32,000 nucleotides of DNA, from positions 660,001-692,000 of the forward strand of contig OY969938.1 of assembly GCA_963704755.1 (NCBI GenBank), read 5' to 3'. The DNA comes from an uncultured Chloroflexia bacterium. GTDB taxonomy: Bacteria; Chloroflexota; Anaerolineae; Anaerolineales; Anaerolineaceae. This document shows positions 479 through 23,806 of this stretch, piece by piece. The position numbers were made by a program, and so were the translations under genes. The stretch's first letter is position 1. Each line of letters begins with the position of its first letter. Under the pieces are notes generated by a model. That model saw only the letters and a program-made list of their open reading frames with translations. It was not told the DNA's origin and did not search any database.

Positions 479-525
479 AGATGTTTCCTTGAGTTTTGTT
501 ATAAACGTTTTATTTTTTGAAGTAT

Positions 526-1800: not shown

Positions 1801-1862
1801 ATTTGCAACCTCCATCATGTGCCGAGTAATTTTTGCAGTTGTAGGCGTGCTCTGCCACGTGG

Positions 1863-3146
1863 TGCCTCAAAATAAAATGTTACTTTGGGATAATCGTTGC
1901 CTCAAATAGAAATGTTACCGGAGAATTCTTAACAATTGATTGACCTTTTTATTGATACTGGCCTGTAAGGACACAGGGTTCAGATGAACATATTGGGCAG
2001 TAAGACTGGCCTTGACTTTCAGGGGAAGAGAGTCCTGGGCTAAGACCCGGCGATAGGGGGTCTTGGCCAGATCATACTTACGGATCGTCTTGCCGTCAAC
2101 GGTTTCTTTAGCAATCAGTTTGAGAACTGGCTGGAAAAAATTGATGTAAAGACGCAAATCGGAGTAAATGGATTTGAGCAAGGCAAGTTCTTGTGGGGTT
2201 TCGAAGCGGTCATAGCCAATGGTATGTCGAACAACCGACCAATTCTTCTGTTCCACATGAGCCTGATCATTCTTGTGGTAAGGCCGCGAACGCGTAAAGG
2301 TAATGAGTTCGCTCTGGCAGTATCGCAAAAGTGTATCGTTGATGAATTCACTGCCATTGTCTGAATCCAATCCCAAAAGAGGAAAAGGCAGGTTATGGCG
2401 CAATTCCTCAATGGCTTGAGAGACAGCTGTCTGGGTTTTGTTGGCCAGGCCCAGGCACTCGGTCCAGCCGGTGGCTAAATCGGTTGCAGTGAGGGTATTG
2501 AGGTAGGTACCCTCGGTGGTTGTACCACAATGGGCCACCAGGTCGATTTCCAGAAAGCCTGGCTTCTCGTCCTCCCAAGGGGTAAAGGTGCGGATGGGAA
2601 TGGCTTGTTTGAGCAAACTGCCCGGTTTGGTAGTCCCAAGCCCACGTGGGGTGGGGGCGAGGCGTGCCTTTTTCAAACAGCGATCTATGGTGGCCCGGCT
2701 CAAGCTCAACAAAAGCGCTTTGGTTTCCTCGCTCAACTCTATTTCCTGCCAGCGCTCTAAAACATCCACCATTTCAGGAATAAAAGGCTGTAGTCGTTTT
2801 GAGCAGATGCACCCACTAACTTCCCAAATCTTTTCCAGAGCCACGACGACTTCCCCGTTGTATTTCTTCCGTCGCCCGGCTTTCTTCAACCCCTTTGGCT
2901 TGGAACCATGCTTCAACAGCCGAATAGCGTATTTACGATGATATCCGCTTGTGGCGATAAATTCATCCAGAATCTGTTTCTTCTCGGCTTTCCTGGCTTT
3001 CAAATAGCGCGGACGAATGCTTTCTAGCATCTCCCGCCGACTGCGTTAACTCATCATGAGCTCCCTCTGCGGTGCTTTATTCCGCGTTAGGGTAACATTT
3101 ATTTTGAGCCAACGTTATTTCGCAAAGTAAGATTAATTGTGAGGCA
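1863..3146 (-). mobile_element. Insertion sequence (~1.28 kb), single rve/DDE transposase, two copies of a ~21-bp motif at each end in inverted orientation
   Basis: Left end: TGCCTCAAAATAAAATGTTAC (1863..1883) and TGCCTCAAATAGAAATGTTACC (1898..1919). Right end: GTAACATTTATTTTGAG (3092..3108) and GTAAGATTAATTGTGAGGCA (3127..3146), which are reverse complements of the same motif. No clear target-site duplication was seen. Confidence 0.7.
1915..3030 (-). CDS. DDE transposase with integrase-core (rve) fold and an N-terminal HTH
   Basis: 371-aa ORF. DDE signature: EIDLVAHCG ... LDSDNGSEFIN ... HVEQKNWSVVR. The N-terminus (KAEKKQILDEFIATSGYHRKYAIRLLK) is HTH-like. It is flanked by the inverted terminal motifs. 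Confidence 0.9.
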   Translation of the reverse strand: MLESIRPRYLKARKAEKKQILDEFIATSGYHRKYAIRLLKHGSKPKGLKKAGRRKKYNGEVVVALEKIWEVSGCICSKRLQPFIPEMVDVLERWQEIELSEETKALLLSLSRATIDRCLKKARLAPTPRGLGTTKPGSLLKQAIPIRTFTPWEDEKPGFLEIDLVAHCGTTTEGTYLNTLTATDLATGWTECLGLANKTQTAVSQAIEELRHNLPFPLLGLDSDNGSEFINDTLLRYCQSELITFTRSRPYHKNDQAHVEQKNWSVVRHTIGYDRFETPQELALLKSIYSDLRLYINFFQPVLKLIAKETVDGKTIRKYDLAKTPYRRVLAQDSLPLKVKASLTAQYVHLNPVSLQASINKKVNQLLRILR

Positions 3147-3203
3147 ATTCGTGCCATTTCATTTCCCGCTTCAATTAATTATAATTATTCTCCTCTTCAA
3201 TTC

Positions 3204-3240
3204 AACAAAAAACCACCCTCCAATTTTTTGGAGGGTGGTT
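3204..3240 (-). terminator. Rho-independent terminator after the HigA-like gene
   Basis: A perfect 12-bp stem, AACCACCCTCCA (3211..3222) / TGGAGGGTGGTT (3229..3240), with a 6-nt loop. On the minus strand it is followed by TTTTTTGTT. Confidence 0.65.
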
Positions 3241-3280
3241 CACTTGCATTAAATTAATTTACTTCATCATCAGTCTCCAT

Positions 3281-3694
3281 TTATACCCGCATATGTGACT
3301 CGATCCGCGGTTTAATGGTGGACGTAGCCTTATGAGCCTGTTTGCCAACTAAAAGATCCGCGGGGATCCCAAGGCCCGTGTGTAGTCGCCGGATCATCTG
3401 AAGAGAGAGACCACGTTTGCGGTTAAGTATTTCTGAAACGCGTTCTTTGCTACCCAGATAGGCAATTAAATCAGAACAACTCAGCCCCCGGCTTTCCATG
3501 TAATATTCCAGCACCTGTACCGGATCATCCGGTTCAGGGATGGGGAAGTGTTTTGGCTCATACGCTTCGACCTAAGTCACGAACACATCCAGCCGGTCGC
3601 CATCGGGAGTACCAGGCTGGGAATCCACCAATATTTCAATTTCTTTCAACGCTGCCTGATAATCGGTTTCGCTGTGAATAGGTTTAATCTCCAT
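3281..3694 (-). pseudogene. HigA-type (COG5499-like) HTH antitoxin interrupted by an in-frame amber codon; no cognate toxin gene upstream
   Basis: The track ORF 3281..3514 (MLEYYMESRGLSCSDLIAYLGSKERVSEILNRKRGLSLQMIRRLHTGLGIP) continues upstream in frame. It reads MEIKPIHSETDYQAALKEIEILVDSQPGTPDGDRLDVFVT*VEAYEPKHFPIPEPDDPVQ from the ATG at 3694. The only interruption is a TAG at 3574..3572, where a Leu codon (TTG) would fit. Confidence 0.6.
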
Positions 3695-3964
3695 ATTCCG
3701 GAGGATGAAGAGCGATTAATTATTGCTACAGGGAGATATCTGGGGGAAGGGTTTGATGATGCTCGTCTTGATACTTTATTTTTGGCCTTGCCAATTGCCT
3801 GGCGCGGAACAGTCGCACAATATGCAGGTCGTCTTCACCGTAATTATGACTTGAAAAGCGAAGTGATTATTTATGATCATGTAGATGAACAAGTGCCAGT
3901 TCTGGCAGGAATGTTCCGAAAACGTAAAAACGCTTATAAAGCTATTGGTTACAAGGTGGAATAA
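3695..3964 (+). pseudogene. C-terminal remnant (~89 aa) of an SF2 helicase
   Basis: IPEDEERLIIATGRYLGEGFDDARLDTLFLALPIAWRGTVAQYAGRLHRNYD... contains the helicase motif VI pattern (Q..GR..R). There is no N-terminal helicase part. The first 49 codons of track ORF 3548..3964 are simply antisense to the HigA-like gene. Confidence 0.6.
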
Positions 3965-3991
3965 TCTCTTTGGAAAGGATGTAAAGACTTT

Positions 3992-4486
3992 TCATGCCGA
4001 ATATAGAGTGCGAATGGTTTTGCGCGCCTGATTGATTACACGGTCAGAAATCCAAAGTGATGAACCTGCCAAAGCATTTAATGAATTCAATGCCTCGTTT
4101 TCACTCTCGACGTGCCCAACTGCTACTGCCCAAAGCAATAAACCAATCGACCCATGAATTTCCAACCCAAGAGACTCACCAAATTGTCTGGCGATAGCAT
4201 CGTCAGTCAGCAACCATTCCGCTTGCATTTGCATGGTTAGTGCAATGGCAGCTGCTTCACCTTCATCGATCTGTTTTCTCCACTCGAGCGTTTTTCTCTG
4301 ATATGGTTCCTCCAGTTCTTTGATGGTAACCCAATCGGGCAACTTGATATCAGAGGCATTCCGTTTGAATTCTTCTGCCACGACAGATGGAATAATTATT
4401 TCCCCTGCCAGATGCAATAGATTGATGATATTTGCTTCACCAAGATGTAACAGAGGGCCAGTATCGCAAACGACGATACGCCTCAT
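3992..4486 (-). CDS. PIN-domain protein (putative toxin of a type II TA pair)
   Basis: 164 aa. The N-terminus MRRIVVCDTGPLLHLGEANIINLL...IIIPSVVAEEF is typical of PIN-domain proteins (acidic D in VCDTGP). It overlaps the upstream AbrB-type gene by 4 nt. Confidence 0.8.
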   Translation of the reverse strand: MRRIVVCDTGPLLHLGEANIINLLHLAGEIIIPSVVAEEFKRNASDIKLPDWVTIKELEEPYQRKTLEWRKQIDEGEAAAIALTMQMQAEWLLTDDAIARQFGESLGLEIHGSIGLLLWAVAVGHVESENEALNSLNALAGSSLWISDRVINQARKTIRTLYSA

Positions 4487-4704
4487 GCTTTTTGACCTTT
4501 CTGTTTTACTGCCCAGTCAATATCTTCAAGCTGGTATTTTTCAGCCAGAGAACGATCCAGTGCCAGCTTTGGAACTAATCGAATGGTCCCATCGGTATCA
4601 ACAACTGCTTCAAGTAAATCACCTTCAGCGATTTTAGCTTTACGACGCGTTGGAGCAGGTAAGGTAATTTGTCCGTTGCTTCGGACTTGCAGATATTCAG
4701 GCAT
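4483..4704 (-). CDS. AbrB/SpoVT/MazE-family antitoxin
   Basis: MPEYLQVRSNGQITLPAPTRRKAKIAEGDLLEAVVDTDGTIRLVP is a swapped-hairpin AbrB-type motif. I place the start at Met15 (4704) because the track ATG at 4746 sits 2 nt from the -10 box of the promoter below. Confidence 0.8.
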   Translation of the reverse strand: MPEYLQVRSNGQITLPAPTRRKAKIAEGDLLEAVVDTDGTIRLVPKLALDRSLAEKYQLEDIDWAVKQKGQKA

Positions 4705-4748
4705 GGTTAACTCTCTTTCTGATATCCTGATTGTTTGACTTCTCATAA

Positions 4749-4777
4749 ATCATACATCGCCCAAATGCCTTTGTCAA
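4749..4777 (-). promoter_or_regulatory. Sigma-70-type promoter of the AbrB/PIN pair
   Basis: On the minus strand: TTGACA (4777..4772), a 17-nt spacer, then TATGAT (4754..4749). Confidence 0.5.
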
Positions 4778-4900
4778 GGAAAATGGTGAGTTGAAGAATA
4801 AGTCGGCCTGGTTTTATGTTTCTAACTTGTTCCGATAAACCTGAAGCATTATTTCATTTTGTAAATTTATTTTCCAGGCGTAAATTAAAGGAAAGAACCC

Positions 4901-4929
4901 TTGAATTAGTAATACAAATGTATTACAAT
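4901..4929 (+). promoter_or_regulatory. Sigma-70-type promoter with an embedded palindromic operator
   Basis: TTGAAT (4901..4906), a 17-nt spacer, then TACAAT (4924..4929). The inverted repeat GTAATACA-AA-TGTATTAC (4909..4926) covers the spacer and the start of the -10 box. AAGGAG lies ahead of the ATG at 4957. Confidence 0.5.
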
Positions 4930-4956
4930 GTATATAACAAAAAGGAGTTTACAACC

Positions 4957-5184
4957 ATGCCCAGAAAAAATTCGTCCACCAAAGCAGTTCGTTCTTTTCG
5001 CCTCAGCCTCGAATGCGTTCGACAATTGAAAGACCTCTCCGGAAACATGGGACGTAGTGAGGGTGATGTGGTCGAGGTGTCAATCGACCGTATGTATCGA
5101 GAAGAGTTTAGATTTGGGAATTTGATGATCAGCGAAGGTCAAAAACCTGAAGACAACTACAGAATAGGAAAGCAAGAGGAGTAA
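4957..5184 (+). CDS. Small protein (75 aa), possibly a ribbon-helix-helix regulator
   Basis: I place the start at Met48 of track ORF 4816..5184, because the promoter lies inside the longer ORF and AAGGAG precedes 4957. RSFRLSLECVRQLKDLSGNMGRSEGDVVEVSIDRMY fits a strand-helix-helix layout. The assignment is weak. Confidence 0.5.
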   Translation: MPRKNSSTKAVRSFRLSLECVRQLKDLSGNMGRSEGDVVEVSIDRMYREEFRFGNLMISEGQKPEDNYRIGKQEE

Positions 5185-5186
5185 AG

Positions 5187-5657
5187 ATGATTGCGGGATT
5201 ATTTCACTTTGTGTGGAAAATCATTTGGAACACAATTGTAATCCTGGTCTGTGCCGGCCTGGGATTTGTAAGTTACAAAGCCAACCAGCCGATGATGGTC
5301 AAAGAAGCTCCAGCAGGCATGACTTACATTGAGTTTATCCAGGATCGAATCGATGCTGCGAAAACAGTTGAACCTTCGAGATGTGGTTGGGGAATGATGA
5401 TCTCCCTGGCTGTATTAGGTCCAATCTATAGTGTCGTATATACCGACGTGGCAATCTATCCAAATGGAAAGCTTGCTAAATTGACAGCGTCTGACCCGGA
5501 TATTCCGAAAGGCATAGCCGGCGCGAAGTGGACCGAAGTCCCAGGGATTTGGTGGGGAGTGGTGGAACGATTGTCGTGGACAATGCTTGGAAAGCCGGCG
5601 GTGTTTGGATGCAAATTTAGGCCTGTGCTGATAAAATATACTGATAAAGTGAATTGA
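5187..5657 (+). CDS. Hypothetical membrane protein (156 aa)
   Basis: It starts 2 nt after the previous stop. Hydrophobic segments: IIWNTIVILVCAGLGFV and GWGMMISLAVLGPIYSVVY. No recognisable family. Confidence 0.6.
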   Translation: MIAGLFHFVWKIIWNTIVILVCAGLGFVSYKANQPMMVKEAPAGMTYIEFIQDRIDAAKTVEPSRCGWGMMISLAVLGPIYSVVYTDVAIYPNGKLAKLTASDPDIPKGIAGAKWTEVPGIWWGVVERLSWTMLGKPAVFGCKFRPVLIKYTDKVN

Positions 5658-5660
5658 ACC

Positions 5661-5688
5661 TTGATTAATATAACAATATTGTTATAAT
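5661..5688 (+). promoter_or_regulatory. Sigma-70-type promoter with a perfect 16-bp palindrome
   Basis: TTGATT (5661..5666), a 16-nt spacer, then TATAAT (5683..5688). The perfect palindrome ATAACAATATTGTTAT (5670..5685) overlaps the spacer and the -10 box. The ATG at 5703 is 14 nt downstream. Confidence 0.5.
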
Positions 5689-5702
5689 GAATAGGAAACA
5701 TT

Positions 5703-6032
5703 ATGTGGAGCATCGTTTTCTACAAAGACCATCGAGGCAAATGCCCACCTCTAGAATTCATTGAAAAGCTGCCAGTAACGGAGCAGGCGAAAGTTCGCAA
5801 TGCTTTACGACTTCTACAAGAGTTTGGAACTGGCTTGGATATGCCTCATGCCAAACCTATTCAAGGAAAATTATGGGAGTTGCGTCCTGGTGGTGTTCGG
5901 TTATTCTATTTTGCCTATATTAATCAACAATTCGTTATCTTGCATGGATATCGGAAACAAGGGATGAAAGCTCCCGAACGCGAAATCGCAGCGGCTTTAA
6001 GACGCATGGAAGAATTAATGAGTGAGGTATAG
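5703..6032 (+). CDS. Gp49-like / HigB-RelE-superfamily toxin
   Basis: WSIVFYKDHRGKCPPLEFIEKLPVTEQAKVRNALRLLQEFG...GKLWELRPGGVRLFYFAYINQQFVILHGYRKQGMKAPEREI is the classic phage Gp49/DUF891 pattern. It overlaps the downstream XRE gene by 11 nt. Confidence 0.85.
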   Translation: MWSIVFYKDHRGKCPPLEFIEKLPVTEQAKVRNALRLLQEFGTGLDMPHAKPIQGKLWELRPGGVRLFYFAYINQQFVILHGYRKQGMKAPEREIAAALRRMEELMSEV

Positions 6033-6321
6033 TATGGCTCGAAAAGAGTTGACTCGATTTGAAGATTGGGAAGCAGAAAAACTAAAAAACCCTGATTTTG
6101 TAGCGGCAGCTGAAGCGCTTGAACCTGGATATCAGATCGCTCGACTGCGCATTTTACGCGGCTTGACTCAAACCCAATTAGCCGAATTGGTTGGTACACG
6201 CCAACCCTCGATTGCGCGTTTGGAAAATGGATCGAGTGTTCCTAGTATTTCTTTCTTAAAAAAAGTAGCCGCAGCTTTGGATGCTAGAATCGAAGTCAAG
6301 TTGGTGCTGGGGGCAAAGTAA
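6022..6321 (+). CDS. XRE-family HTH antitoxin
   Basis: LRILRGLTQTQLAELVGTRQPSIARLENGSSVPSISFLKKVAAAL is an XRE/Cro-type HTH. It is paired with the Gp49-like gene. Confidence 0.85.
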   Translation: MRYSMARKELTRFEDWEAEKLKNPDFVAAAEALEPGYQIARLRILRGLTQTQLAELVGTRQPSIARLENGSSVPSISFLKKVAAALDARIEVKLVLGAK

Positions 6322-6426
6322 GTTTTCCGAACCTTTAATTGGATTACTGTTTTGAATAATTTTCAAGAGTAGATGGAATACTTGATAGGGTATCTCATTG
6401 TTATTATAGAACCCGGACGCGCTTGA

Positions 6427-6957
6427 TTACTCCAAATCTTTTACAATCTCTCGAAGTCGCCAGGGTCGGTAATTTCTCACTTCTACACACATATTGATAT
6501 GGTTGGGTCCAAGAGTTGAACCCTCAGGTGGTGGCGGATTATTGTGAATATGACCATGCAGATTAATCCAACCATCCTCAAGCGGAACAACTGGCCAGTG
6601 GGAAAAGATTAACTTTATTTTGTCACTGAATTCAACTTGAATCGGTGTATTAATAATGCTCACTCCGTGAGACTCGTATCGGATTCTATTTAGTCGATCA
6701 TGATTGCCACGGATTAAAATTATTTTGCCATTCAATATTTCGGTAAGAATATCAAAATTGCTTCTTTTTCCAAATGCAAAATCGCCCAAGTGAAGGACGG
6801 TATCCTCTGGGGAGATTAAATCATTCCAGTTTTTGATTATTAGTTCTTGCCAATTGTCGGGACGGTTGCAGTATCTTCCAACATTCACATGGAAGAAGTG
6901 TGTATCTGAGATAATCCAAGTATCCTGATTGATTCCAAACGTGTTGTCGAACTGCAT
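6427..6957 (-). CDS. Calcineurin-like metallophosphoesterase
   Basis: Motifs appear in order: ISDTHFFH (D.H), LGDFAFG (GD), IRGNHD (GNHD), LHGHIH (GH.H). Confidence 0.85.
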   Translation of the reverse strand: MQFDNTFGINQDTWIISDTHFFHVNVGRYCNRPDNWQELIIKNWNDLISPEDTVLHLGDFAFGKRSNFDILTEILNGKIILIRGNHDRLNRIRYESHGVSIINTPIQVEFSDKIKLIFSHWPVVPLEDGWINLHGHIHNNPPPPEGSTLGPNHINMCVEVRNYRPWRLREIVKDLE

Positions 6958-7091
6958 CCTTCAATTATAGTTTGATAGTCAATTTTTATTATGACAAATT
7001 AATATATAAAGGTATGACCATTTAGCCCGTTTCCATCATGTGTTCCTTTAGGAACTAATTGTGAGTTTATTATGAAAATTTGAGTAAATCA

Positions 7092-9374
7092 CTAACTAAT
7101 ATTTATCACTCTACAAATTTCGACTGGTATATGGATTTGATCTTTCAGAAAATGGTGCCATGCAATTTGGTGGTCCGCAATCTTTTCTTTTTCCCCTTTT
7201 ACCTCTACAAATAACGGGGTTCCGTTTTGAGAAATCAGAAATAGATCGGGGAGTCCTTTTCGGTTGTCATTGAAATTTTCTAATAATCTTCTCATGATAC
7301 TCATCAATTGGTTTTCATATAGAACCTGGGTGGCAATTGCCAATGAATCAATTGAATAACGTTGCCAGTTCTCAATTGGACGACAAGGTTTTCCGTAATT
7401 CTGTTGGAAAGCAGATCGTAATTCTATCTCGGGTGTGGTCTTAACCAAACCAAATAATTTTGGTGAATAAATATCTTTGATACGATGCTCAATCATTGCT
7501 TTTCGCCGTTGGTAAAACTGGGGGTAAAAGAAATCGTGGGGCATATCTTGCATTTTGCTGGGAAATTCACCAAATTGTGGAGTATAAACACTTTGAAGCT
7601 TAGCAAATATTACATCCCAAAATAGCAAGGCCATAATTTCCCACCAATAATCATTTTCAGTCCAATCTCCCCGATAGCCACGTGAAATGAAATTATTTAG
7701 GACAAATTGCTCAATTGTCAATTCTCTGTTATTTGGTCCCAAATAGTAAGCTTTGCCGGCACCCACGGTCAACTTATGAGCTTCAATCCAACGGATAGGG
7801 CAACCATTTTCTTCAGTGGGTAACTGTTTGGTAATTGCTTTTGGTAAAGGAGGTGGAACTTGGTCAGTAATTTTCTCTGCCTGGTTGTTATCTGCTGGAA
7901 TGAATTTAGGAGGCTCAGGTACGGTACTAAATAGAATTGCATAACGAGTTCCAACCAGTATTCTGCCCGTTTCAAAACATGAAACGGTATGAATTGTTTT
8001 TGCAAACTCAACTTCTGCAAGAAGTTTTCCGCTAATAGTTGTGATTGCCATTTTTTTATCAGACCAGACGGCGATTCGATTGGCTGATTGACTAAAAGCA
8101 AGTTTTCCATAACCAAAGTTTGGAATTTTGCCGATTTTCTTCCCGGAATCGTAGATCAATACATCGCTAGCAGTGCAAATCCCAAACATAGCTTCATTTA
8201 TCCAATAAACCCCAAAAATGGAGTCGTTGTCGATTTTGTATTTTTTGATTGTTCTATCTTCAAAGATTTCATAAACTGCTTCTCTTGAGGCAATTAGCAG
8301 GTTTTTGCCTGATGGTGAAACTGTGATATCTACAGCGGATGGAGCTCCCATAGAAATTGTGAATGTTATCCCTTGAGATTTGCTAGTTTCTACTTCTTCA
8401 GGAATATCCCATTTATATTGAAGTTTCCCAACCGGATTGAGAACATAAAGGGTCCCAAAACTTGTAAATGCAACCAGCTCCTTCCCAGCAGAGACATAAT
8501 ATGGACATGGAAGGAAATAATCATCGTTTTGAGTAGATTTATTTCTTGACAATCCGTACGACCACAAGTTTTGACCGTCGGGTGAAAATGCATAAAGCTT
8601 GCCATTTCGGCAACCGGCATATATCTGATTATCTGAAACCACAACCTCAGATGGTACATCCGGCAGCAATTGCTTGTTTATCAATTTACCATCTGGGTTA
8701 TAGAAGAAAAAGGTAGTTTTTCCATCGCCGATTTTTCCATCTCGGGTATATAAAATTACCCATTCTCCAGATAGTAACAATCCGGTCGGCTCTCCCATTA
8801 TTTGTGTTTCCCAGGTTCGCTCATTTTCACCAATTTGATGGCAGAACAATTTGGGTGTATTTCCCCCAGTTGTGCCATAAAAACGATCACCTGTACTAGC
8901 GAGGGCGGAAAGTTGCGGAGAAATTTGAACTTGCTGTATCAAGGATATATTGCGTTCACCAGCCCGAATTGTAAAATCTGGGATAATTTCTTTTAGCGCG
9001 CCTTTAGGAGTTGTACCGGTTTTTATTTCCAACCGCTGTTTCCGTTTCTTTAATTCAGCTTCCCACCCCGCATCTTTCTGGATTTTGAGGGCTTTTTCAA
9101 TAATTGTTAGAGCTGGCAAATATTGCTTTTGTTTTTCAAGGTTAATCAAATAACGGTTGAATGTAAATGTGTCTGAACTACCTTCTGAGATCGCCTTAGT
9201 ATATAGTTGTACAGCTTCAACGAGATTCCCCGCTTGCTCGTATGCATTAGCAATTAATCCACGAATTCGCCAGTATATTTGTGGATACTGTTGTAAGGGA
9301 AAATAATTGGCTGTTCTATTGAATAATTTGATTGCTTCGTTATAACGCTTTTCTCTAACTAAACGTGAAGACAA
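7092..9374 (-). CDS. Multidomain protein: N-terminal TPR, central PQQ/WD-like beta-propeller, C-terminal FAN1-like VRR-NUC nuclease
   Basis: 760 aa. TPR: YNEAIKLFNRTANYF...GNLVEAVQLYTKAI. Propeller-type repeats: NQIYAGCRNGKLYAFSPDGQNLWSY and ELVAFTSFGTLYVLNPVGKLQYKW. The C-terminus RKGLPDLFLISQNGTPLFVEVKGEKEKIADHQIAWHHFLKDQIHIPVEICRV matches the VRR-NUC/FAN1 core (GLPDL ... EVKG..D.L...Q..W ... EVC.V). Confidence 0.8.
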   Translation of the reverse strand: MSSRLVREKRYNEAIKLFNRTANYFPLQQYPQIYWRIRGLIANAYEQAGNLVEAVQLYTKAISEGSSDTFTFNRYLINLEKQKQYLPALTIIEKALKIQKDAGWEAELKKRKQRLEIKTGTTPKGALKEIIPDFTIRAGERNISLIQQVQISPQLSALASTGDRFYGTTGGNTPKLFCHQIGENERTWETQIMGEPTGLLLSGEWVILYTRDGKIGDGKTTFFFYNPDGKLINKQLLPDVPSEVVVSDNQIYAGCRNGKLYAFSPDGQNLWSYGLSRNKSTQNDDYFLPCPYYVSAGKELVAFTSFGTLYVLNPVGKLQYKWDIPEEVETSKSQGITFTISMGAPSAVDITVSPSGKNLLIASREAVYEIFEDRTIKKYKIDNDSIFGVYWINEAMFGICTASDVLIYDSGKKIGKIPNFGYGKLAFSQSANRIAVWSDKKMAITTISGKLLAEVEFAKTIHTVSCFETGRILVGTRYAILFSTVPEPPKFIPADNNQAEKITDQVPPPLPKAITKQLPTEENGCPIRWIEAHKLTVGAGKAYYLGPNNRELTIEQFVLNNFISRGYRGDWTENDYWWEIMALLFWDVIFAKLQSVYTPQFGEFPSKMQDMPHDFFYPQFYQRRKAMIEHRIKDIYSPKLFGLVKTTPEIELRSAFQQNYGKPCRPIENWQRYSIDSLAIATQVLYENQLMSIMRRLLENFNDNRKGLPDLFLISQNGTPLFVEVKGEKEKIADHQIAWHHFLKDQIHIPVEICRVINIS

Positions 9375-9396
9375 TTCAATGAATATTTCTTGTGGT

Positions 9397-9762
9397 TTAC
9401 CAGAAAGATGCTGTTCCCCTTTTTGCTGCCAGATCTTCTGCTATTTCAAAGGATCGGTCAAATTCACCCGCCATAACAAGGATGGATAGAAGACCGTAAT
9501 AGGTAGCTGGAATATCCGTGCCGATCTGGACGGCTTTCTCATAAGCGGCACGAGCTTTATCAATCAATCCAGCTTGTTCATAACAATCCCCTAATCGACC
9601 CAATCCAAAAGTAACTCCATCTTGATCTTTTTGTTTCTCGTATTCTTGGATTCCTTTTAGAATATACTTTTCAGCTTCAGCAAAGTTCTTTTGCGCTTCT
9701 AGAGCTAATCCTTTTGAAATTAGTTCGATTGGTTCTGGCATAGTCTCACCTGAATCCTTCAA
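9397..9762 (-). CDS. Small TPR-repeat protein
   Basis: 121 aa (or 114 aa from Met8 at 9741). TPR-like repeats: FAEAEKYILKGIQEYEK, LGDCYEQAGLIDKARAAYEKAVQIG. It ends 22 nt before the next gene. Confidence 0.7.
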   Translation of the reverse strand: MKDSGETMPEPIELISKGLALEAQKNFAEAEKYILKGIQEYEKQKDQDGVTFGLGRLGDCYEQAGLIDKARAAYEKAVQIGTDIPATYYGLLSILVMAGEFDRSFEIAEDLAAKRGTASFW

Positions 9763-9831
9763 TTCATTTCACTGAATAGTGTTTTTTGTTATATGATTTT
9801 AGAAATGGTAAGTAGTTATTAGGTTTCTTAT

Positions 9832-11259
9832 TTACATATAGAATTTGAATTGTGGCATTGGCTCACGGTCAGAAGGAATTTCCCTCATAATTTCTCCTAC
9901 GATATCTGAGAATTGAAGAGTAATCGGTGCCTTTCCACCCAGTCGTGAAGAATTCCAGTTCATCTTGGTCATAATGAGCACTTCCTTCAGAAGTGTTTCT
10001 CTCGGCGTATCTTGTCCAACATGATCAGTGATTAGAATAGGCGAAGGCACATGCAAAACATGGGATTGTCCTAACTCAGATATAAATCCTGTTGTATAAA
10101 GGAAATCCATGTCGCCCACCATAAATCGAGTGCCACGTAAGGGGGGGTAGCTGCTGGTTGTTAGTAAGCGGATGTGACTCTGTCTGGTATCAAATGACAT
10201 CAAATCAAATTTGTTTACTCGTTGGCTTAGAGTTTGCCTGAAACCATCTTTTTCTCCCGGCCAGAACTTCGAAGATTTATGAATTACTACTCGACTGGGG
10301 GTCTGTCCCATTTCCTTCTCATACCGATCTAGAACAATATTGATTAAATTACTCGCGTCCTGATTGTTTAGATGTGGAGATCTAGAATCCATTCGATATG
10401 AGTTCCACTGGAATTCGGGTCCTCTAAGAATTAGCCCATCACCATGTTCATCGAATGCCTGAACAAGACTTGTTTGCATGGAATCAAATTTTGATCCTAG
10501 GGGGCGATAGAAGGCGACACCTACATAACAGGTTCCAGGTGTCAATCCAATCGGACCCCAGGGGACTCCACCGGCTTTAAAATAAAGACCTGTGAAAAAA
10601 TTCCAAGCTACTTTTGATGGATCATCTTTTTCCCTACCATCAATTGTTTGTTGGCGGAGAAATTGCGTGGGTATCTGGTATTTCATTGCCAATGCTTTAA
10701 ACGCCCTTCGCAGATCTCTATGCACCAAACCTTTTTCTTGGTCTCGGTATTCAACATCCTTACATTTTTCATATACGTTGTCTGGCAACGCTATAACAAC
10801 ATATTGAGGTGGTTGGTCTTTCTTTGACAATAAATCGAGTTTTTCTTCCAATTTTTCCAGTAGGAACTCAAACCTATCTCTAGGTTTCTTTTCCAGAATT
10901 TCATCTATTTCTTTTTGAGTAAGTTGGCCATTCCAATCTTGATCAAAAATCAATTTTGAGAAAAAACCGCGGTCTTCCATGTAACCCGGAAATTCGACGT
11001 GGTCTTCGTCACATAAAACGCCTTCAGAAGTTTTTTCCAGCCAGCTCCTCGCGGAATCAATTGTCTCAGCGCTTCCAATAAATCCTACTCGTACTGTGTC
11101 TGGGTGTTTTCGTTTTGGGCTAAAAGACTTTGGCCCATATCGAGATATTCCAATTTTAGGGTCAATATGTTCCCCTCCGTTTGCAAATTGTAGTACGGGT
11201 TCTTCCAAGTATTGACACTTGATTATTGGTTCAATCGATTGGTTAATCGTCAATGTCAT
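9832..11259 (-). CDS. Short prokaryotic Argonaute (MID + PIWI only), predicted catalytically inactive
   Basis: 475 aa is too short for N-PAZ domains. pAgo hallmarks: PQYVVIALPDNVYE, HRDLRRAFKALAMKYQIPTQFL (MID 5'-end pocket region), WNFFTGLYFKAGGVPWG, and the C-terminal FKFYM. The DEDX positions are lost: CYVGVAF sits where active Agos have G.DV, and VVIHKSS where they have RDG. Confidence 0.9.
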   Translation of the reverse strand: MTLTINQSIEPIIKCQYLEEPVLQFANGGEHIDPKIGISRYGPKSFSPKRKHPDTVRVGFIGSAETIDSARSWLEKTSEGVLCDEDHVEFPGYMEDRGFFSKLIFDQDWNGQLTQKEIDEILEKKPRDRFEFLLEKLEEKLDLLSKKDQPPQYVVIALPDNVYEKCKDVEYRDQEKGLVHRDLRRAFKALAMKYQIPTQFLRQQTIDGREKDDPSKVAWNFFTGLYFKAGGVPWGPIGLTPGTCYVGVAFYRPLGSKFDSMQTSLVQAFDEHGDGLILRGPEFQWNSYRMDSRSPHLNNQDASNLINIVLDRYEKEMGQTPSRVVIHKSSKFWPGEKDGFRQTLSQRVNKFDLMSFDTRQSHIRLLTTSSYPPLRGTRFMVGDMDFLYTTGFISELGQSHVLHVPSPILITDHVGQDTPRETLLKEVLIMTKMNWNSSRLGGKAPITLQFSDIVGEIMREIPSDREPMPQFKFYM

Positions 11260-12553
11260 CTTCTACCCCCTCGTCAAGATTACTAAATGGATCATCATTT
11301 TCAAGGGCATTTTGCAGTTTTGCCCAGGTGAATAAATCCTCTGCATACTCAACATTGGTAAAGGCTTTTGCATATTTTTCTGGAATACCAGGCCAATCGA
11401 TATCACCAACAAGAAGAGTCGTAGATATTACAAGTGAGGATGATCCAAGATTTATTATGATTCTTGGTTCGTTACTACTAAGAAAACTCCTCCAAAAATT
11501 GATTTCTCCCAATAGATCATAATTGAACATTTTGCTTTTCTTCCGTGTAACTTTAGCCCCAACTTTTTCAGAATCTAAAGGTGTGTTGCCGTCTTTTGTC
11601 ACTCGGAATTCCGGCCGAAGAGTGAGACACCACCGACTAGATGATACATAATAGAATCGAAGGCTAATTGAACGGTGAAGCCAGTAGGATTTGGGTAGTC
11701 CAGTCTTTTTTGTGATTGGCTGCCAAACTACGTATTTTTTCGCCGCAGTTTGATTTAGCGGCTTGTATTCTATATCTTTAGGTTGGCCAGGTTGATCGGG
11801 CACAAAGTAATATCGGTAGTGCATGGGATCATAAGCCAAACCTTTTTGATTTGTAAATATCCTGATTGTGTTATTTAGCAGTTCGACGAACCAACGAGAT
11901 TTGACAGGGTCATCCCACCATTCACGAGATGGTATTTGCCTAACCATATTTGCATCCACGAGAGTGCAGAAAGGACTATCGGTATTTCTGGGATCTTGAA
12001 AGGTGTATAGTCTATCATCCTTGAGAATATAAGGTAAATAAACGTCTGGCGGTATAAATAATGGTAATTGCTCAATCGCATAATTTGTGAGAGTGTTTTT
12101 TGTCGGTGTAGACTGATAAAGGTAAACAGGGGTCTTTACTACCTCAAGAAGAGATGAATAAATTTTTTCTATATGATACTTTTCTCTACGCTGATCACTC
12201 TTTGATTTTTTATCAATGGCATTTCCTAATGCAGTCCGGACGAGTTTTTCGTGATCTTCCTTCATTCCACGCAATCGCTCGACAGTATACAGCTGTGGTT
12301 TGCTATCAATAATTTTATGATGTTCAGGGCAAAGCAGCATTAAGTTGCTTTCTTCATCTCTCTGATCCAACGGCAATGCGAACTTTCCTCTAGGACCATC
12401 CTCTCGTTGAGCAACAATATGAGCCACATTGCTCAAAATAACGGTGCTGTCATCGCCTTCTTGTAAAGTCAGGGTAGTTGGACAACCAGGAAATGCACAC
12501 CTGTTTCCGGATTTTTGTAGGAGAGCTTTTAAATCTGACGGCGAAATCGCCAT
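11243..12553 (-). CDS. HNH-nuclease / APAZ-type partner of the short pAgo
   Basis: 436 aa. It overlaps the pAgo start by 17 nt, the standard effector-APAZ then pAgo order. The N-terminus CAFPGCP...VAHIVAQ...EESNLMLLCPEHHKIID is a Cys-rich HNH (beta-beta-alpha-Me) motif: C19, C24, H45, N70, C75, H78/H79. Calling the remaining ~330 aa APAZ is inferred from position, size and partnership. I cannot verify that fold by eye. Confidence 0.75.
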   Translation of the reverse strand: MAISPSDLKALLQKSGNRCAFPGCPTTLTLQEGDDSTVILSNVAHIVAQREDGPRGKFALPLDQRDEESNLMLLCPEHHKIIDSKPQLYTVERLRGMKEDHEKLVRTALGNAIDKKSKSDQRREKYHIEKIYSSLLEVVKTPVYLYQSTPTKNTLTNYAIEQLPLFIPPDVYLPYILKDDRLYTFQDPRNTDSPFCTLVDANMVRQIPSREWWDDPVKSRWFVELLNNTIRIFTNQKGLAYDPMHYRYYFVPDQPGQPKDIEYKPLNQTAAKKYVVWQPITKKTGLPKSYWLHRSISLRFYYVSSSRWCLTLRPEFRVTKDGNTPLDSEKVGAKVTRKKSKMFNYDLLGEINFWRSFLSSNEPRIIINLGSSSLVISTTLLVGDIDWPGIPEKYAKAFTNVEYAEDLFTWAKLQNALENDDPFSNLDEGVEDDIDD

Positions 12554-12733
12554 AATTTACTCCTATTCAAAAGGATGGTAATAGATCTATTTTACCTTCG
12601 CCACGCTTTTCCTAGATTATAGAAAAACTACATGTCTTACTTCTCAACCACTTTTTTCAAAAAGATTATTATGTATATTAAGTATCAACGATGTAAAATT
12701 TAGCGAACAGAGAATAGGTATTTTTAAATTTGT

Positions 12734-13315
12734 TTATTTTTTTTGTTCCGTTATTGCTTTCCTTCCTGCATTTGTTATAGTCCATATTCCTTTGGGCAAA
12801 TCGTTTGCCATCAACCCATCTTTCACGAGTGCATTCCTTGCCCATTGAACAGTGTTCCGCCAGCGTGGAAAGGAAGGAGCTGATAATAATGGCTGTTTAT
12901 CATAGTCATTTAATGCGCTTGCCATTATTTTCTCTATTTGGGCGATGACATCTGTTATGTTAGCGGTCCCCCCAAAGTGGATAAGGGATTCCAGAATTGG
13001 AGTTTTAAATTCTTCTTCTGGGGTACGCAGACCGCGTTTTAATTTACTCTTTCGTTTAGTGTTGGATCGTTTCCGTTCGCCGGGTGTTTTTGGACCTATT
13101 TGTGACTCCAGCGCGCGCCATTCAATTTGAAGATCCTTGATCTTTCCTCTAAATAAGATCGTAGCCTCAGCTTTCTCAAGCAATAGACGAGCTTTCTTGT
13201 GATCGGAGAGGGAGAACTGATGAGATCCTTCCTGGTTGAGCTCTTCAATAGCAGTTTCAATCTCTTCCAATAGGATTTCGAATGCAGATGAGACTTCGTT
13301 TTCCACCATATTCAT
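12734..13315 (-). CDS. Coiled-coil protein with a C-terminal Mrr_N-like winged-helix domain
   Basis: Track ORF 12734..13390. The start is probably at 13315 or 13309, after AAGGAG. The C-terminus TPILESLIHFGGTANITDVIAQIEKIM...FPRWRNTVQWARNALVKDGLMANDLPKGIWTITNAGRKAI resembles the N-terminal wHTH of Mrr-type restriction proteins. No catalytic domain is present. Confidence 0.6.
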   Translation of the reverse strand: MNMVENEVSSAFEILLEEIETAIEELNQEGSHQFSLSDHKKARLLLEKAEATILFRGKIKDLQIEWRALESQIGPKTPGERKRSNTKRKSKLKRGLRTPEEEFKTPILESLIHFGGTANITDVIAQIEKIMASALNDYDKQPLLSAPSFPRWRNTVQWARNALVKDGLMANDLPKGIWTITNAGRKAITEQKK

Positions 13316-13364
13316 CTCCTTATACAGTATTTCAGAATTGACCTTTTTCAGGAACTTTTCCCCA

Positions 13365-13934
13365 TTAGGAGCCAGTATAGCCATTGGCAATCGGTAAAAT
13401 TCTTGTTGCCGTATAGATAATTATTGGAACCCAGAGATTCTCTTTCGGAAATGAAGCACAAAGGTAAGGTGATCTTTTTCCGGTGTCACCCAGCAATTCC
13501 TGCTTTGTGCCAACCTCTGCGCCAGCTTTCCTAAGTTCGCTGAAAAGTGATAATCCAGCCCCCTGATCCAAATCAAATTCTGATATCGTTGGATGTAGGG
13601 TTTCATGTTTGTCAAAATACTCTTTGGGGTAGGCTTGACGAAGCTCTGTATAGAACCTGCGAGGATTGTCTGGAATAGGTTGAATGGCCAGACGCAACCC
13701 ATGTTTGAGTCTATCAAAGGTATTGTATTCTTTCTGTATTTCAAGAGTTCTGATGTCTCTTTCCCCAGTAATGAATATTGCATACCCTAAACGGATATCA
13801 ATCCTATCGTCTGTAACGTGAAAAGGAATTACCTTTCCAATGGATCTTTTTTTACTGACTGTGTAACTTTCATAACTCTCTGGAGATCTTTGTCGAATGG
13901 TTACCATCCCGAGTGTAATAACATCATCCACCAT
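13365..13934 (-). CDS. Hypothetical protein (189 aa)
   Basis: The ORF follows res after a 38-nt gap on the same strand. No family recognised. There is a weak D-x19-E-x-K pattern (IDIRLGY ... LEIQKEY). Confidence 0.55.
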   Translation of the reverse strand: MVDDVITLGMVTIRQRSPESYESYTVSKKRSIGKVIPFHVTDDRIDIRLGYAIFITGERDIRTLEIQKEYNTFDRLKHGLRLAIQPIPDNPRRFYTELRQAYPKEYFDKHETLHPTISEFDLDQGAGLSLFSELRKAGAEVGTKQELLGDTGKRSPYLCASFPKENLWVPIIIYTATRILPIANGYTGS

Positions 13935-13972
13935 AATAATTTCCCCTTTCTTTTGGTTTCTGTCATAGGCTG

Positions 13973-16951
13973 CTACACTTCCCCTGCGTTTACCACTACT
14001 GCAAATGGTACGTCCAAAGCTTCAAAATGTTTTTTACCGCAGCGGACTTTATCTGCCTCGCTGTTACGTAATTGCAAGAAATCACGTGTGCCCTTGGTTT
14101 CACGTATCAGATAAAGGGTCTGATCGCCTTCTTTGACGATGGCCCAATCGGGGTTGTACTTGCCAACCGGTGTATCGATCTGGAACCAACCAGGCAACTT
14201 AACAAACAGCTTGATATCTTCACGCTGATCTAGCTGGCGAGCAAACTCGCACTCCACTTCAGAATCATACACAACATACTCGTAGATGGACTTATCAACC
14301 TTCAGAGAATTGAGATAATTGACGATCTCTTCATTTTTGAAGAGCAGCATTTCCCATTCAGAATCAGGGTCGCTACCCGGTATTTTTTCATATTTGATGC
14401 CATCCACTAGTAAGCGGTGCAATTCATTATTGATAATATGTGCGGCAGTATCCATAAACCGCTGTGGATCGTTGAAAAACTCGTTCAGACGGCCAGATTC
14501 TTTGAGAATGCGTACCAGGGTGGAGCGCGTCAATTCAGTCTCGTTTTGAAGATAAGCCAGTACATCTGGCACGAGGTGGCTGCCATAGGTCATTTTTTCT
14601 TCTGCTACACTCATAGGCGTTGCAGTTACCCCGCCTTTTGCCACAACGACCTGCCCGGCAACCACATTGACTTTGGGAACTTCAATGGATTCCATCCGTT
14701 TCAATGCGGTCACAGCCTGGCGGACAAGGTCTTCTGTCTGGAACTCGACCCGATAAGTCGTTTTGGGTTTGATACGTTCCCAAAGAGCCTGAAATTCAGG
14801 GCTGAGTTCTATTTGTTTGCGTAAGTGATTGCCACCTTCATCTTTTTCTTTGCGGATATGACGTTCAATCTGATAGGAGGAGAGCAGATCAATTACCGCC
14901 GAGGCCAGGTCTTGATGCGCTGCCGGCAAATTGAGGCTGAAGCCTGCTTGGCGCGGATTAAACGCCGGCTGAATGCGTCCTTCGTTATCCAGCATTTTTT
15001 GGGCGACTAGTGCTGTACGAATTTCTTCTGCTGCAGGGCGCCCGATGGGTTGTTCCTGTCCATCCACTACACGGATTAGTTTCGCAATCGCAGTCAGGGG
15101 CACTTTGCCAAAGGTGACACCGCAATCTTCTTCATATTCTGTTTGCAAAGCGCTGGCAAATTCCTCGTAACTTTCGTTCGCCATTACATACAGCTTATTG
15201 ATGGAATCATCCCGCACACGGAAACCGCTTTGGTCTACCGGTAAGCGCAGACCACGCCCAATTTCCTGACGTTTTTTCATGGAACTGCGAGTTTCATTCA
15301 GGGTACAAATTTGGAAGACATTGGGGTTATCCCAACCTTCACGCAACGCTGAATGGCTGAAGATGAAACGTAAGGGTTCATCCATGGATAATAGACGTTC
15401 CTTTTCTTTCATAATCAGGTTGTAGACGTCATCATCGGCCTGGGTGTCACCGCGAGTATCCTTTAACACCCCTTTCTTATCCTGAGCAAAATAGCCGTTA
15501 TGGAGTTTCTCGACTGGCAGCTTCAGCCAATCCAACATCTGATATCGCGGTTCTTGAACCAATTCGGCCAATGCGGCTTCAAACGCCAGTGCAAACTTTC
15601 CTTTAATTGCGTGACCATCTGCATCATAATCGCGGTAATTGGCCACCCGATCCACAAAGAAGAGACTGAGTACCTTGATGCCGCGCTGCCGCACCAGCAG
15701 TTCATTTTCAAGATGGCGCTTGATCGTGTGTTTGATCTGTACGCGCCAGATATCCTCACGGATGCCACCGCTTTCTTCTCCCAGACGCAGCACCCGTCCA
15801 TTGTTGAAGCGGATATATTCATTACCGGGTTCAGCGTTTATCTCTGCTATTGAGAAACCATCCTGATAAACAGCCCGTTCGTTAGAAAGTTCATAGAGAT
15901 CTGCACCATTCTTTACGGTAATAGGTTTTTCCTTAGGACCGTCTGGTGTCTGCATGTGGATGCGCAGTTTGGCCTTGATACCATTTTTATATTCCACCTG
16001 TTCGACACGCACAAAGGCATCATTCGCATTCCCGCTGCCGCTGGCACTGGCAACAACAATCTGTTTGACCAGTTTCAATTCAAAAGCGCGTACGGGATCC
16101 AGGCGGTAAACCAGGTTATATGGATTGCGATGAGTGGCTGAGTAACGTAAGGTACATAACGGGTTAAGCGCTTTAATGGCTTCCTGGGCTTTATCGGTAT
16201 TATCCACACTCTGGGGTTCGTCAATAATGACAATAGGGCGGGCAGCCTGGACAAACTCAATAGGTTGACGGCCAGACAGTTTGTCGCTCTCCTTGTAGAT
16301 TACGTTGCTCTTTTGTTCAGCCTCAGTACCAGTAAAATTCTTTCGGAAAGCGTCGATATTAATCACCAGGATCTGCAATGTGTTGCTGACTGCAAACTGG
16401 CGCAGGCGGTTGATTTTGCGGGCATCATAGACGAAATGCTCAAATGACAGGTTGTTATAGAGAGCGCGGAAATGGTCTTTGGTAATTTCGATATTCTTCA
16501 GCACCCCTTCACGGATGGCAACGCTGGGGACGACAATAATAAATTTTTGAAATCCATAACGCTGTGAAAGTTCAAAGATCGTGCGCAAATAGACGTACGT
16601 TTTACCAGTGCCGGTCTCCATCTCCACTGAAAAATGAGGACAGAGCCGGGTGGTATTGGCAGGAACATCGAATAGTTCCCAGGCTTCCAGGGGAGCAGCT
16701 TCGTCTGCAACTTCTATATCATTCAGAGTTTGGATTTTGCGAGTATTGGTGTGAAGTTTTTCTTCTGACAACAATAGATGATTGCCAACTCCCAGCTCGG
16801 TGCGCGCCTGGCCGACCAGTAGGCCACCGTAATCGCCTACGTTGATGACGCTATATTCTGGAGTACCCTGCGACTGACCATCGAAAAGGTCAGTGATAGC
16901 TGCTACGGCATCGAGCTGAAACTGCTGGTTGGGGTCAAATTGAAGCTTCAT
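13973..16951 (-). CDS. res: Type III restriction enzyme Res subunit (SF2 helicase plus C-terminal PD-(D/E)xK nuclease)
   Basis: 992 aa. The typical N-terminus is MKLQFDPNQQFQLDAVAAITDLFDGQ. Motifs: Walker A METGTGKTYVY, motif II VIIDEPQ, and C-terminal nuclease YNPDWAIV...LIRETKGT. The start overlaps the rhuM stop (ATGA). Confidence 0.9.
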   Translation of the reverse strand: MKLQFDPNQQFQLDAVAAITDLFDGQSQGTPEYSVINVGDYGGLLVGQARTELGVGNHLLLSEEKLHTNTRKIQTLNDIEVADEAAPLEAWELFDVPANTTRLCPHFSVEMETGTGKTYVYLRTIFELSQRYGFQKFIIVVPSVAIREGVLKNIEITKDHFRALYNNLSFEHFVYDARKINRLRQFAVSNTLQILVINIDAFRKNFTGTEAEQKSNVIYKESDKLSGRQPIEFVQAARPIVIIDEPQSVDNTDKAQEAIKALNPLCTLRYSATHRNPYNLVYRLDPVRAFELKLVKQIVVASASGSGNANDAFVRVEQVEYKNGIKAKLRIHMQTPDGPKEKPITVKNGADLYELSNERAVYQDGFSIAEINAEPGNEYIRFNNGRVLRLGEESGGIREDIWRVQIKHTIKRHLENELLVRQRGIKVLSLFFVDRVANYRDYDADGHAIKGKFALAFEAALAELVQEPRYQMLDWLKLPVEKLHNGYFAQDKKGVLKDTRGDTQADDDVYNLIMKEKERLLSMDEPLRFIFSHSALREGWDNPNVFQICTLNETRSSMKKRQEIGRGLRLPVDQSGFRVRDDSINKLYVMANESYEEFASALQTEYEEDCGVTFGKVPLTAIAKLIRVVDGQEQPIGRPAAEEIRTALVAQKMLDNEGRIQPAFNPRQAGFSLNLPAAHQDLASAVIDLLSSYQIERHIRKEKDEGGNHLRKQIELSPEFQALWERIKPKTTYRVEFQTEDLVRQAVTALKRMESIEVPKVNVVAGQVVVAKGGVTATPMSVAEEKMTYGSHLVPDVLAYLQNETELTRSTLVRILKESGRLNEFFNDPQRFMDTAAHIINNELHRLLVDGIKYEKIPGSDPDSEWEMLLFKNEEIVNYLNSLKVDKSIYEYVVYDSEVECEFARQLDQREDIKLFVKLPGWFQIDTPVGKYNPDWAIVKEGDQTLYLIRETKGTRDFLQLRNSEADKVRCGKKHFEALDVPFAVVVNAGEV

Positions 16952-17982: not shown

Positions 17983-17998
17983 TGATGCTCCTTCAAAA

Positions 17999-19880: not shown

Positions 19881-19926
19881 GAAGGAGAATCTCCAATTTT
19901 CAGAAAAATATAAAGAATAAATGCCC

Positions 19927-23755: not shown

Positions 23756-23806
23756 AATTGAAGTTTTTAGTTTCCAAGCTGAACATTACTTGATAATTGT
23801 TTTCGA

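Follow-up and report, generated by a model that had tools for sequence, protein, structure and literature searches.

Two neighboring open reading frames (ORFs) that look like a small TPR gene and a gene for a 760-amino-acid (aa) protein are a single ~882-aa gene, split by one extra base. The gene lies in the window, our term for the whole 32,000-nucleotide (nt) stretch analyzed (uncultured Chloroflexia bacterium, family Anaerolineaceae; GenBank assembly GCA_963704755.1, contig OY969938.1, positions 660,001 to 692,000 of the forward strand), between a short prokaryotic Argonaute (pAgo) gene and a small metallophosphoesterase (MPE) gene. Its product joins an N-terminal TPR domain and a beta-propeller to a C-terminal FAN1-type nuclease domain with an intact active site, and the gene is horizontally mobile and independent of both the pAgo and the MPE. 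We are highly confident of these points. On balance, the gene probably stands alone as a single-gene cassette that was acquired horizontally and lies in a variable defense hotspot, with no obligate partner. A role in defense, and the mechanism of that role, are proposed more tentatively.

What is the evidence for a single gene? First, the full-length homologs are single proteins (20 of the 20 aligned) of 872–883 aa, a length close to the sum of the two ORFs (~121 + 760), and they span both. Their N termini match the 121-aa ORF, and the match runs directly on into the 760-aa ORF. Second, a DNA alignment with four relatives (loci L011, L013, L004, and L001) places the lesion precisely: the window reads GCAGAAGATCTGG where the relatives read GCAG-AGATCTGG, with one extra A at 9436/9437. 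Third, removing this A restores an uninterrupted 882-aa ORF, from an ATG at 9741 to a stop at 7092, whose product is 91% identical to P0001, the closest relative. A first-pass annotation of this DNA had described a small TPR protein followed 22 nt later by a 760-aa protein. The ORFs, domains, and inter-ORF gaps that it reported on the minus strand are correct (22 nt, and 134 nt before the MPE gene), as is its remark that no hairpin terminator follows the pAgo stop, since no terminator-like site was found ahead of the next gene. The small TPR ORF is, nonetheless, the frameshifted N terminus of the same gene, fused in all relatives, and the gap after the pAgo stop, given as 69 nt (9763..9831), is 90 nt when measured to the true ATG at 9741. 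The TTG “start” of the 760-aa ORF at 9374 is a product of ORF definition only, and no Shine-Dalgarno-like sequence is evident before it. A programmed frameshift or a genuine two-protein split was considered and rejected: the window alone carries the extra base, and no relative has a split gene.

The inserted A breaks the gene after ~100 codons. The ratio of nonsynonymous to synonymous substitution rates (dN/dS) of the corrected gene is 0.19 against the closest relative, L011, and 0.10–0.13 in deeper comparisons. Because these values are low, the lesion either is very recent or reflects a sequencing or assembly error. Hence, the window copy has either been inactivated very recently or been misassembled.

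The protein has three conserved domains and a variable linker (Table 1). The first-pass reading of N-terminal TPRs, a propeller, and a C-terminal FAN1-type VRR-NUC domain is supported by Pfam, AlphaFold2, and Foldseek. The AlphaFold2 model was built for P0001 with a 20-sequence alignment and has a mean pLDDT of 85. For the propeller, the Pfam matches (PQQ_2 and Beta-prop_ACSF4) both fall below the curated cut-offs; the region also has sequence matches in the PDB to designed PQQ-type propellers, and Foldseek matches it to PQQ/WD40-type propellers in the PDB (Cake8, TM 0.74). The nuclease (NUC) region is modeled as an alpha/beta domain (residues 645–882). All three domains are under purifying selection, with column identities of 0.71, 0.61, and 0.73 and dN/dS of 0.10–0.19. 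In the linker, the mean column identity is 0.36, and pLDDT is below 50 at residues 610–638. Neither the Pfam scan nor the AlphaFold2 model of the nuclease protein contains an NTPase domain, including the STAND type.

The active site is that of a FAN1-type nuclease. E695, D832, E846, K848, and Q858 are invariant in 20 homologs and present in the window, where their coordinates were verified. The first four lie opposite E386, D507, E522, and K524 of PaFAN1, residues that in that enzyme serve as two-metal ligands and catalytic lysine (PMC4201288). Sequence alignment likewise places D960, E975, and K977 of human FAN1 against the active-site residues of the window protein. The first-pass annotation would have given up its reading had the VRR-NUC catalytic residues been missing from an alignment; the E / D / E-x-K / Q set is intact. 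Judged from sequence, the FAN1-type NUC domain has a complete two-metal active site and is a candidate for the 5′ flap endonuclease / 5′-3′ exonuclease activity of the FAN1 family.

How closely does the protein resemble FAN1? The likeness is confined to the C-terminal ~240 residues, which form a FAN1-type NUC domain with a VRR-NUC PD-(D/E)xK core, a helical insert, and the conserved metal ligands and lysine, as in FAN1 and PaFAN1 (4R89, 4RI8). A phmmer search of the PDB matches PaFAN1 (4r89) at 1.2e-9 over ~200 residues and human FAN1 over ~240 residues, and Foldseek matches the C-terminal ~250 columns to human FAN1 (4rib, 4ric, 4ri8) at 21%–22% identity. Pfam finds no SAP domain, both the sequence and the structure alignments to FAN1 are confined to the NUC domain, and Foldseek does not align the window TPRs to the FAN1 TPR domain. 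The TPRs (1–241) are kept apart from the NUC domain by the propeller (256–605) and the disordered linker (610–638). Without the SAP/NTD, and with TPRs placed differently from those of FAN1, the protein has a FAN1-type NUC domain but is not a canonical FAN1. It differs further in having no UBZ, in placing N-terminal TPRs and a ~350-aa propeller plus linker ahead of the NUC domain, with no packing against that domain predicted by the model, and in belonging to a family that is Chloroflexota-restricted and island-borne.

Each half of the protein also occurs without the other. Paralogs of the TPR-propeller half have the nuclease replaced by a J-domain (P0045–P0049, P0054, P0038, P0073, and a protein encoded at L020 9806..12082), and others have no extra domain at all. 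The J-domain paralogs score ~200–360 bits with a hidden Markov model (HMM) over profile positions 3 to ~450. The TPR-propeller-DnaJ proteins, such as P0045 and the 758-aa protein of L020, thus share a homologous N-terminal TPR domain and propeller with the window protein; they differ from it in that the J-domain replaces the nuclease, and the L020 gene sits among housekeeping genes (sugar-binding protein, RraA-like, PhyH). To our knowledge, the TPR-propeller-J-domain family has not been described. This modularity suggests that the TPR-propeller serves as a scaffold for binding or recruitment, through which different activities are delivered. The NUC half is found in other bacterial proteins in several arrangements, namely with the NUC domain first and a later SAP domain, as an AAA fusion, and in short TPR-NUC forms. 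The closest NUC relatives outside the family (P0050, P0064, P0080, and P0118) have an N-terminal NUC domain followed by ~300 aa, one of them with a SAP domain after the nuclease, or are an AAA-ATPase-NUC fusion. Among bacteria, FAN1-type nucleases seem to take more architectures than the canonical SAP-TPR-NUC order alone.

The family is small and, as far as named genomes go, appears restricted to Chloroflexota. The nuclease family search gave 23 hits among 5.8 billion clusters, and an exhaustive HMM search of 1.84 billion representatives found ~8 full-length clusters at 50% identity; every named genome with a member is from this phylum (Levilinea, Anaerolineales, Caldilineales, Chloroflexia). 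A metagenome scan for further loci returned short contigs only and added little context. In 12 of the 13 loci, the G+C content of the nuclease gene is below that of nearly every flank, for example 0.36 versus 0.54–0.58 in L004 and 0.47 versus 0.65 in L017. This holds even among housekeeping genes and indicates that the gene was acquired horizontally. A phage or plasmid origin was considered and rejected: no viral copy was found in IMG/VR or among GenBank phages, plasmids gave only NUC-domain-level matches at 24%–29% identity, and fold matches in BFVD were to generic WD40/PQQ propellers only.

Defense genes accompany the nuclease gene in ~7 of 13 distinct contexts, a raw count from a small sample. 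In the window, its island neighbors are an Argonaute system of the SPARHA type, an Mrr_N gene, a type III restriction-modification (R-M) system, a TIR protein, and toxin-antitoxin pairs. L001/L015 have a type III-like R-M system, Fic, Ppl (PADLOC 1e-59), a PLD-helicase, an SNF2/DUF6094 protein, and zeta and PIN toxins. L007/L029 and L009 have the CapP-like / LmuB-like module described below. L016 has MZB and PLD genes that are DISARM-like in appearance, L019 has AbiTii, and the P0012 contig encodes a GajA-like ATPase, a McrA-like HNH protein, a small VRR_NUC protein, a methyltransferase with DUF87, and another HNH protein. No neighbor is common to the whole nuclease family. The first-pass annotation had counted the lack of a conserved partner among the findings that would speak against its reading, and homologs indeed lack one. 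Its suggestion of a “separate sensor-nuclease defense gene pair” holds in part: the gene is separate, mobile, usually found in defense islands, and a member of no known family, but there is no pair, the small TPR ORF being part of the same gene. PADLOC-DB v2 has no model that matches the 760-aa ORF or the MPE at E ≤ 0.1, and the TPR ORF has only a chance-level match (0.025). A literature search on VRR-NUC or FAN1 in connection with phage defense, defense islands, or beta-propellers turned up no description of this architecture.

What might the protein do? In the mechanism we propose, the TPR/propeller half would sense or recruit a protein or DNA structure and would position or license the nuclease. 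The FAN1-type NUC domain would then cut branched or 5′-flap DNA, for example the intermediates that arise when invading DNA replicates or recombines, so that the protein would act as a stand-alone defense nuclease. A defense role along these lines has, in our judgment, a little less than an even chance of being correct. The fully specified version, a single-gene anti-phage or anti-plasmid system in which detection of an invader protein or of aberrantly structured DNA by the TPR/propeller unleashes the nuclease on replication intermediates, is possible but on the unlikely side.

Known systems offer partial parallels. Like the TPR sensors of the Avs/STAND type, the window protein fuses a repeat-domain module to an effector, lies in an island, and is horizontally mobile; the parallel is one of analogy only, as the window protein has no STAND or other NTPase domain and no PADLOC match. 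Stand-alone or minimal VRR-NUC proteins of bacteria and phages and the TseV effectors of the type VI secretion system share the PD-(D/E)xK VRR-NUC core (Pfam PF08774), and the VRR-Nuc domains of TseV are used as weapons in bacterial conflicts (PMC9635880). These proteins are either ~100-aa dimeric modules like Holliday-junction resolvases or PAAR-fused secreted toxins with immunity genes. In contrast, the window protein has the longer FAN1 version of the domain, fused to TPRs and a propeller, and lacks PAAR or a conserved immunity gene.

Several points weigh against a defense role. First, the role is proposed by guilt by association, and ~5 of the 13 contexts (L004, L013, L017, L018, and L025) have no recognizable defense gene; PADLOC gives no match for the neighbors of no assigned function in L025, L013, L004, and L019. 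Second, there is no NTPase or other obvious switch to control a toxic nuclease. Third, PaFAN1 needs its SAP/NTD and FAN1-type TPR for flap binding (PMC4201288), and because the window protein has neither, its substrate may differ. Fourth, the characterized FAN1 proteins are repair enzymes. Fifth, the TPR-propeller also occurs in J-domain proteins of housekeeping contexts, so it may be a generic interaction scaffold rather than an invader sensor. Finally, because the window copy is frameshifted, it may do nothing here.

If the protein is not a defense nuclease, it may be an accessory DNA-repair nuclease that acts on crosslinks, flaps, or stalled forks. The TPR-propeller would then bring it to a replication or repair factor of the host, and its presence in islands would reflect horizontal transfer only. 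The FAN1-type NUC domain with all catalytic residues would suit such a role, since FAN1 and PaFAN1, where characterized, repair crosslinks and flaps (PMC4201288). Moreover, some loci have a housekeeping character: the L004 gene adjoins DnaE and is near UvrC, and the L013 gene sits beside sugar-metabolism genes. Foldseek places the propeller close to other propellers that include E. coli YncE, a protein that binds single-stranded DNA. Yet the family is very rare, with a patchy distribution even inside Chloroflexota, its genes have foreign G+C content where they sit among housekeeping genes, most contexts are defense islands, and the SAP/NTD domains needed for the repair function of FAN1 are missing. 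We therefore regard a repair role as unlikely, if worth keeping in mind.

A larger system is also conceivable, in which the nuclease is the effector arm of an adjacent SMC/Rad50-like ATPase and the window copy is an orphan. Some of the family's neighbors are indeed close. A seven-gene module lies 33 nt upstream of the nuclease gene in L007 and L029 and is divergently adjacent to it in L009, even though the nucleases share only 46% identity. In L001, a Ppl-type PHP-ATPase gene ends 30 nt upstream of the nuclease gene, and a PLD-helicase gene overlaps the nuclease stop by 8 nt. However, these neighbors belong to different families in different loci and are absent from the window, L011, L004, L013, L016–L019, and L025. 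Ppl, for its part, acts as a single-gene system and is covered by a PADLOC model of its own. Membership in such a system is accordingly improbable. The seven-gene module (L007 606..9968; L029 1..7968; L009 359..9597) encodes a sigma70-like protein, a 204-aa protein, an M78 peptidase (CapP-like, PADLOC 3e-18), 366-aa and 655-aa proteins, an SbcD-like phosphoesterase, and an LmuB-like SMC ATPase, and it has a JetA gene beside it in L009. It may be an undescribed defense system or a functional partner of the nuclease.

Still less probable is that the nuclease and the MPE form a two-gene system, or that the MPE is the conserved partner of interchangeable upstream effectors (FAN1-like or DUF1883-TIR). 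An MPE gene does follow the nuclease gene in the window and in L011, and in L013 as an uncalled, multi-frame, decayed remnant. In L048–L055, a DUF1883-TIR gene lies directly upstream of the MPE, and DUF5131 and a type I R-M system with Abi_C lie ahead of it; in L048, the TIR gene and the MPE share a strand and are 28 nt apart. The MPE also matches a phage-type phosphoesterase, phrog_547, at 1e-42. Against this, the MPE is missing from every one of the more distant nuclease loci, is frameshifted in L013 and N-terminally truncated in L044, where SPARHA abuts it, and is separated from the TIR gene by an insertion sequence (IS) element in L050. The MPE family has 1422 or more clusters at 65%–92% identity, mostly in Anaerolineae, versus 23 nuclease hits, and its members are found beside other cassettes as well. 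Conservation with L048 also extends to the genes downstream of the MPE, as would fit a conserved hotspot flank. For these reasons, the MPE was rejected as an obligate partner. The slot upstream of the MPE is filled by a FAN1-like, SPARHA, or TIR gene in different genomes, and therefore looks like a defense-cassette hotspot in Anaerolineae. In L044, the region where SPARHA abuts the truncated MPE is 9434..9739. Beyond the MPE, two small genes (window 4816..5184 and 5187..5657) are conserved in L048 (7001..8246 with the MPE). A 176-aa protein encoded upstream of the L004 homolog has the length of the MPE and was checked as a candidate; it is unrelated.

The idea raised in the first-pass annotation that the nuclease is an accessory or downstream factor of the pAgo module, co-transcribed with it, is scarcely credible and already contradicted by comparative data. 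The pAgo and its HNH-APAZ neighbor form a SPARHA cassette, with PADLOC matches to pAgo_I (2e-140) and to the Aga_REase / HNH-effector models, and SPARHA has been described as a pAgo + HNH-effector system that protects against plasmids and phages (PMC12738770). The cassette and the nuclease gene share a strand and an island, both end in a DNA nuclease, and only 90 nt with no terminator-like hairpin separate the pAgo stop from the nuclease gene. That junction, however, is unique to the window, and synteny runs out at it from both directions. Homology to L011 stops at 9742. L011/L012 are syntenic with the window on both sides (6867..9742 at 92% nt identity and 12740..17741 at 76%), and an unrelated 226-aa gene fills the SPARHA slot. 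Homology to L044, the closest SPARHA locus, begins at 9833. Its pAgo is 92% identical at the aa level, the pair is 86% identical at the nt level over window 9833..12564, and the flanks differ: the L044 cassette sits behind a type I R-M system and directly before the truncated MPE, without a FAN1-like gene. SPARHA is therefore a discrete, self-contained cassette that landed by chance beside the nuclease gene. Indeed, tblastn found no pAgo or HNH-APAZ in any homolog locus across ~13 distinct contexts, and the reverse check through SPARHA relatives, in which L045–47 (pAgo 68% identity) have neither the nuclease nor the MPE nearby, leads to the same rejection. Elsewhere, each occurs without the other; the pAgo family has 2008 hits in several phyla versus 23 for the nuclease.

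What are the implications of a stand-alone nuclease gene? First, the apparent two genes of the window are one frameshifted gene, and the apparent extension of the pAgo operon is an unrelated cassette, which guards against over-reading gene order in defense islands. Second, the work defines a small uncharacterized family in which a FAN1-type nuclease is joined to a TPR-propeller, which is mobile and tends to sit among defense genes, and which offers a testable candidate. Third, should the nuclease prove protective against invaders, the immune repertoire of prokaryotes would gain FAN1-type structure-specific nucleases, and this would be the first FAN1-type nuclease shown in prokaryotic immunity. 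It would also be a further eukaryotic genome-maintenance enzyme with bacterial relatives in conflict systems, with a sensor scaffold that is re-used with a J-domain in paralogs. Fourth, the slot upstream of the MPE, which holds a FAN1-like, SPARHA, or TIR gene, is a hotspot that could yield further cassettes.

Table 1. Features of the nuclease gene, its product, and the neighboring genes, with positions in the window
Feature	Coordinates	Strand	Evidence or remark
Single TPR / beta-propeller / FAN1-type nuclease gene	7092..9741	minus	882 aa after removal of one inserted base
121-aa TPR ORF	9397..9762	minus	Pfam TPR
760-aa ORF	7092..9374	minus	Pfam TPR, PQQ-like propeller, VRR_NUC 9.4e-17
Frameshift site, one extra A	9436..9437	minus	GAAG here, GAG in relatives; DNA alignment with L011, L013, L004, L001
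TPR domain, residues 1-241	9018..9741	minus	13 helices (~6 TPRs); Pfam TPR; AlphaFold2 pLDDT ~90
PQQ/WD-like beta-propeller, residues 256-605	7926..8975	minus	Pfam, PDB, AlphaFold2, Foldseek
Pro-rich linker, residues 606-644	7809..7925	minus	Predicted disordered, poorly conserved; AlphaFold2, column identity
FAN1-type NUC domain (VRR-NUC with helical insert), residues 645-882	7095..7808	minus	Pfam VRR_NUC 9.4e-17
E695	7656..7658	minus	Opposite PaFAN1 E386
D832	7245..7247	minus	Opposite PaFAN1 D507
E846	7203..7205	minus	Opposite PaFAN1 E522
K848	7197..7199	minus	Opposite PaFAN1 K524
Q858	7167..7169	minus	Invariant in family
Small calcineurin-like MPE, 176 aa	6427..6957	minus	Pfam Metallophos; neighbor, not dedicated partner
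Junction of SPARHA and nuclease gene (90 nt)	9742..9832	minus	Unique to window; homology ends; no terminator-like site
SPARHA cassette, HNH-APAZ + short pAgo (2.7 kb)	9833..12564	minus	Independent two-gene system; PADLOC, synteny
Short pAgo	9832..11259	minus	PADLOC pAgo_I 2e-140
HNH-APAZ	11243..12553	minus	
Mrr_N-domain gene	12734..13390	minus	
189-aa protein of no assigned function		minus	Adjoins Mrr_N gene, between it and type III restriction subunit
Type III restriction subunit	13973..16951	minus	

The comparison with L011 yields further observations. Its 226-aa slot protein (L011 6525..7205) has no Pfam, PADLOC, NCBIfam, or PHROG match and is a candidate defense gene by position. Identity to the window is 92% across the FAN1-like gene and into the start of the MPE, versus only 76% across the type III R-M / Mrr_N block, a contrast suggesting either that the nuclease block was exchanged recently or that the R-M genes diverged faster. 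Within that block, a protein with an Mrr_N domain and no detected nuclease domain is encoded next to the 189-aa protein, downstream of the type III restriction gene. The two genes are conserved together in the window (12734..13934, minus strand) and in L011 (5258..6454) at 82%–87% aa identity, and they may be a two-gene module.

The whole defense island looks like an integrated foreign element. Its G+C content (window 1..26100) is 0.43, versus 0.58 for the adjoining rpoC gene (26938..31173, minus strand), and a tyrosine integrase gene (24798..26117, plus strand) lies at the boundary with rpoC; no tRNA was found. Rfam at gathering thresholds and ARAGORN found no structured RNA or tRNA that would account for the gaps or the island. 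Left of the MPE, the island continues with two toxin-antitoxin-like pairs (3992..6321), one consisting of MazE and a DUF3368 protein and the other of a Gp49/HigB-like and an HTH protein, then an rve-family transposase (1915..3030, minus strand) and a TIR-domain protein (673..1818, minus strand; TIR_2, 3e-28) similar to the TIR domains of retron-TIR and Thoeris. A second gene of the island is also frameshifted: the SNF2-family helicase gene (21946..23755, minus strand) is split into a 119-aa ORF (23396..23755) and a 443-aa ORF (21946..23277), with the break within runs of A4 and T5 near 23,390–23,410. Two frameshifted genes point to an indel-prone assembly or to a decaying island.

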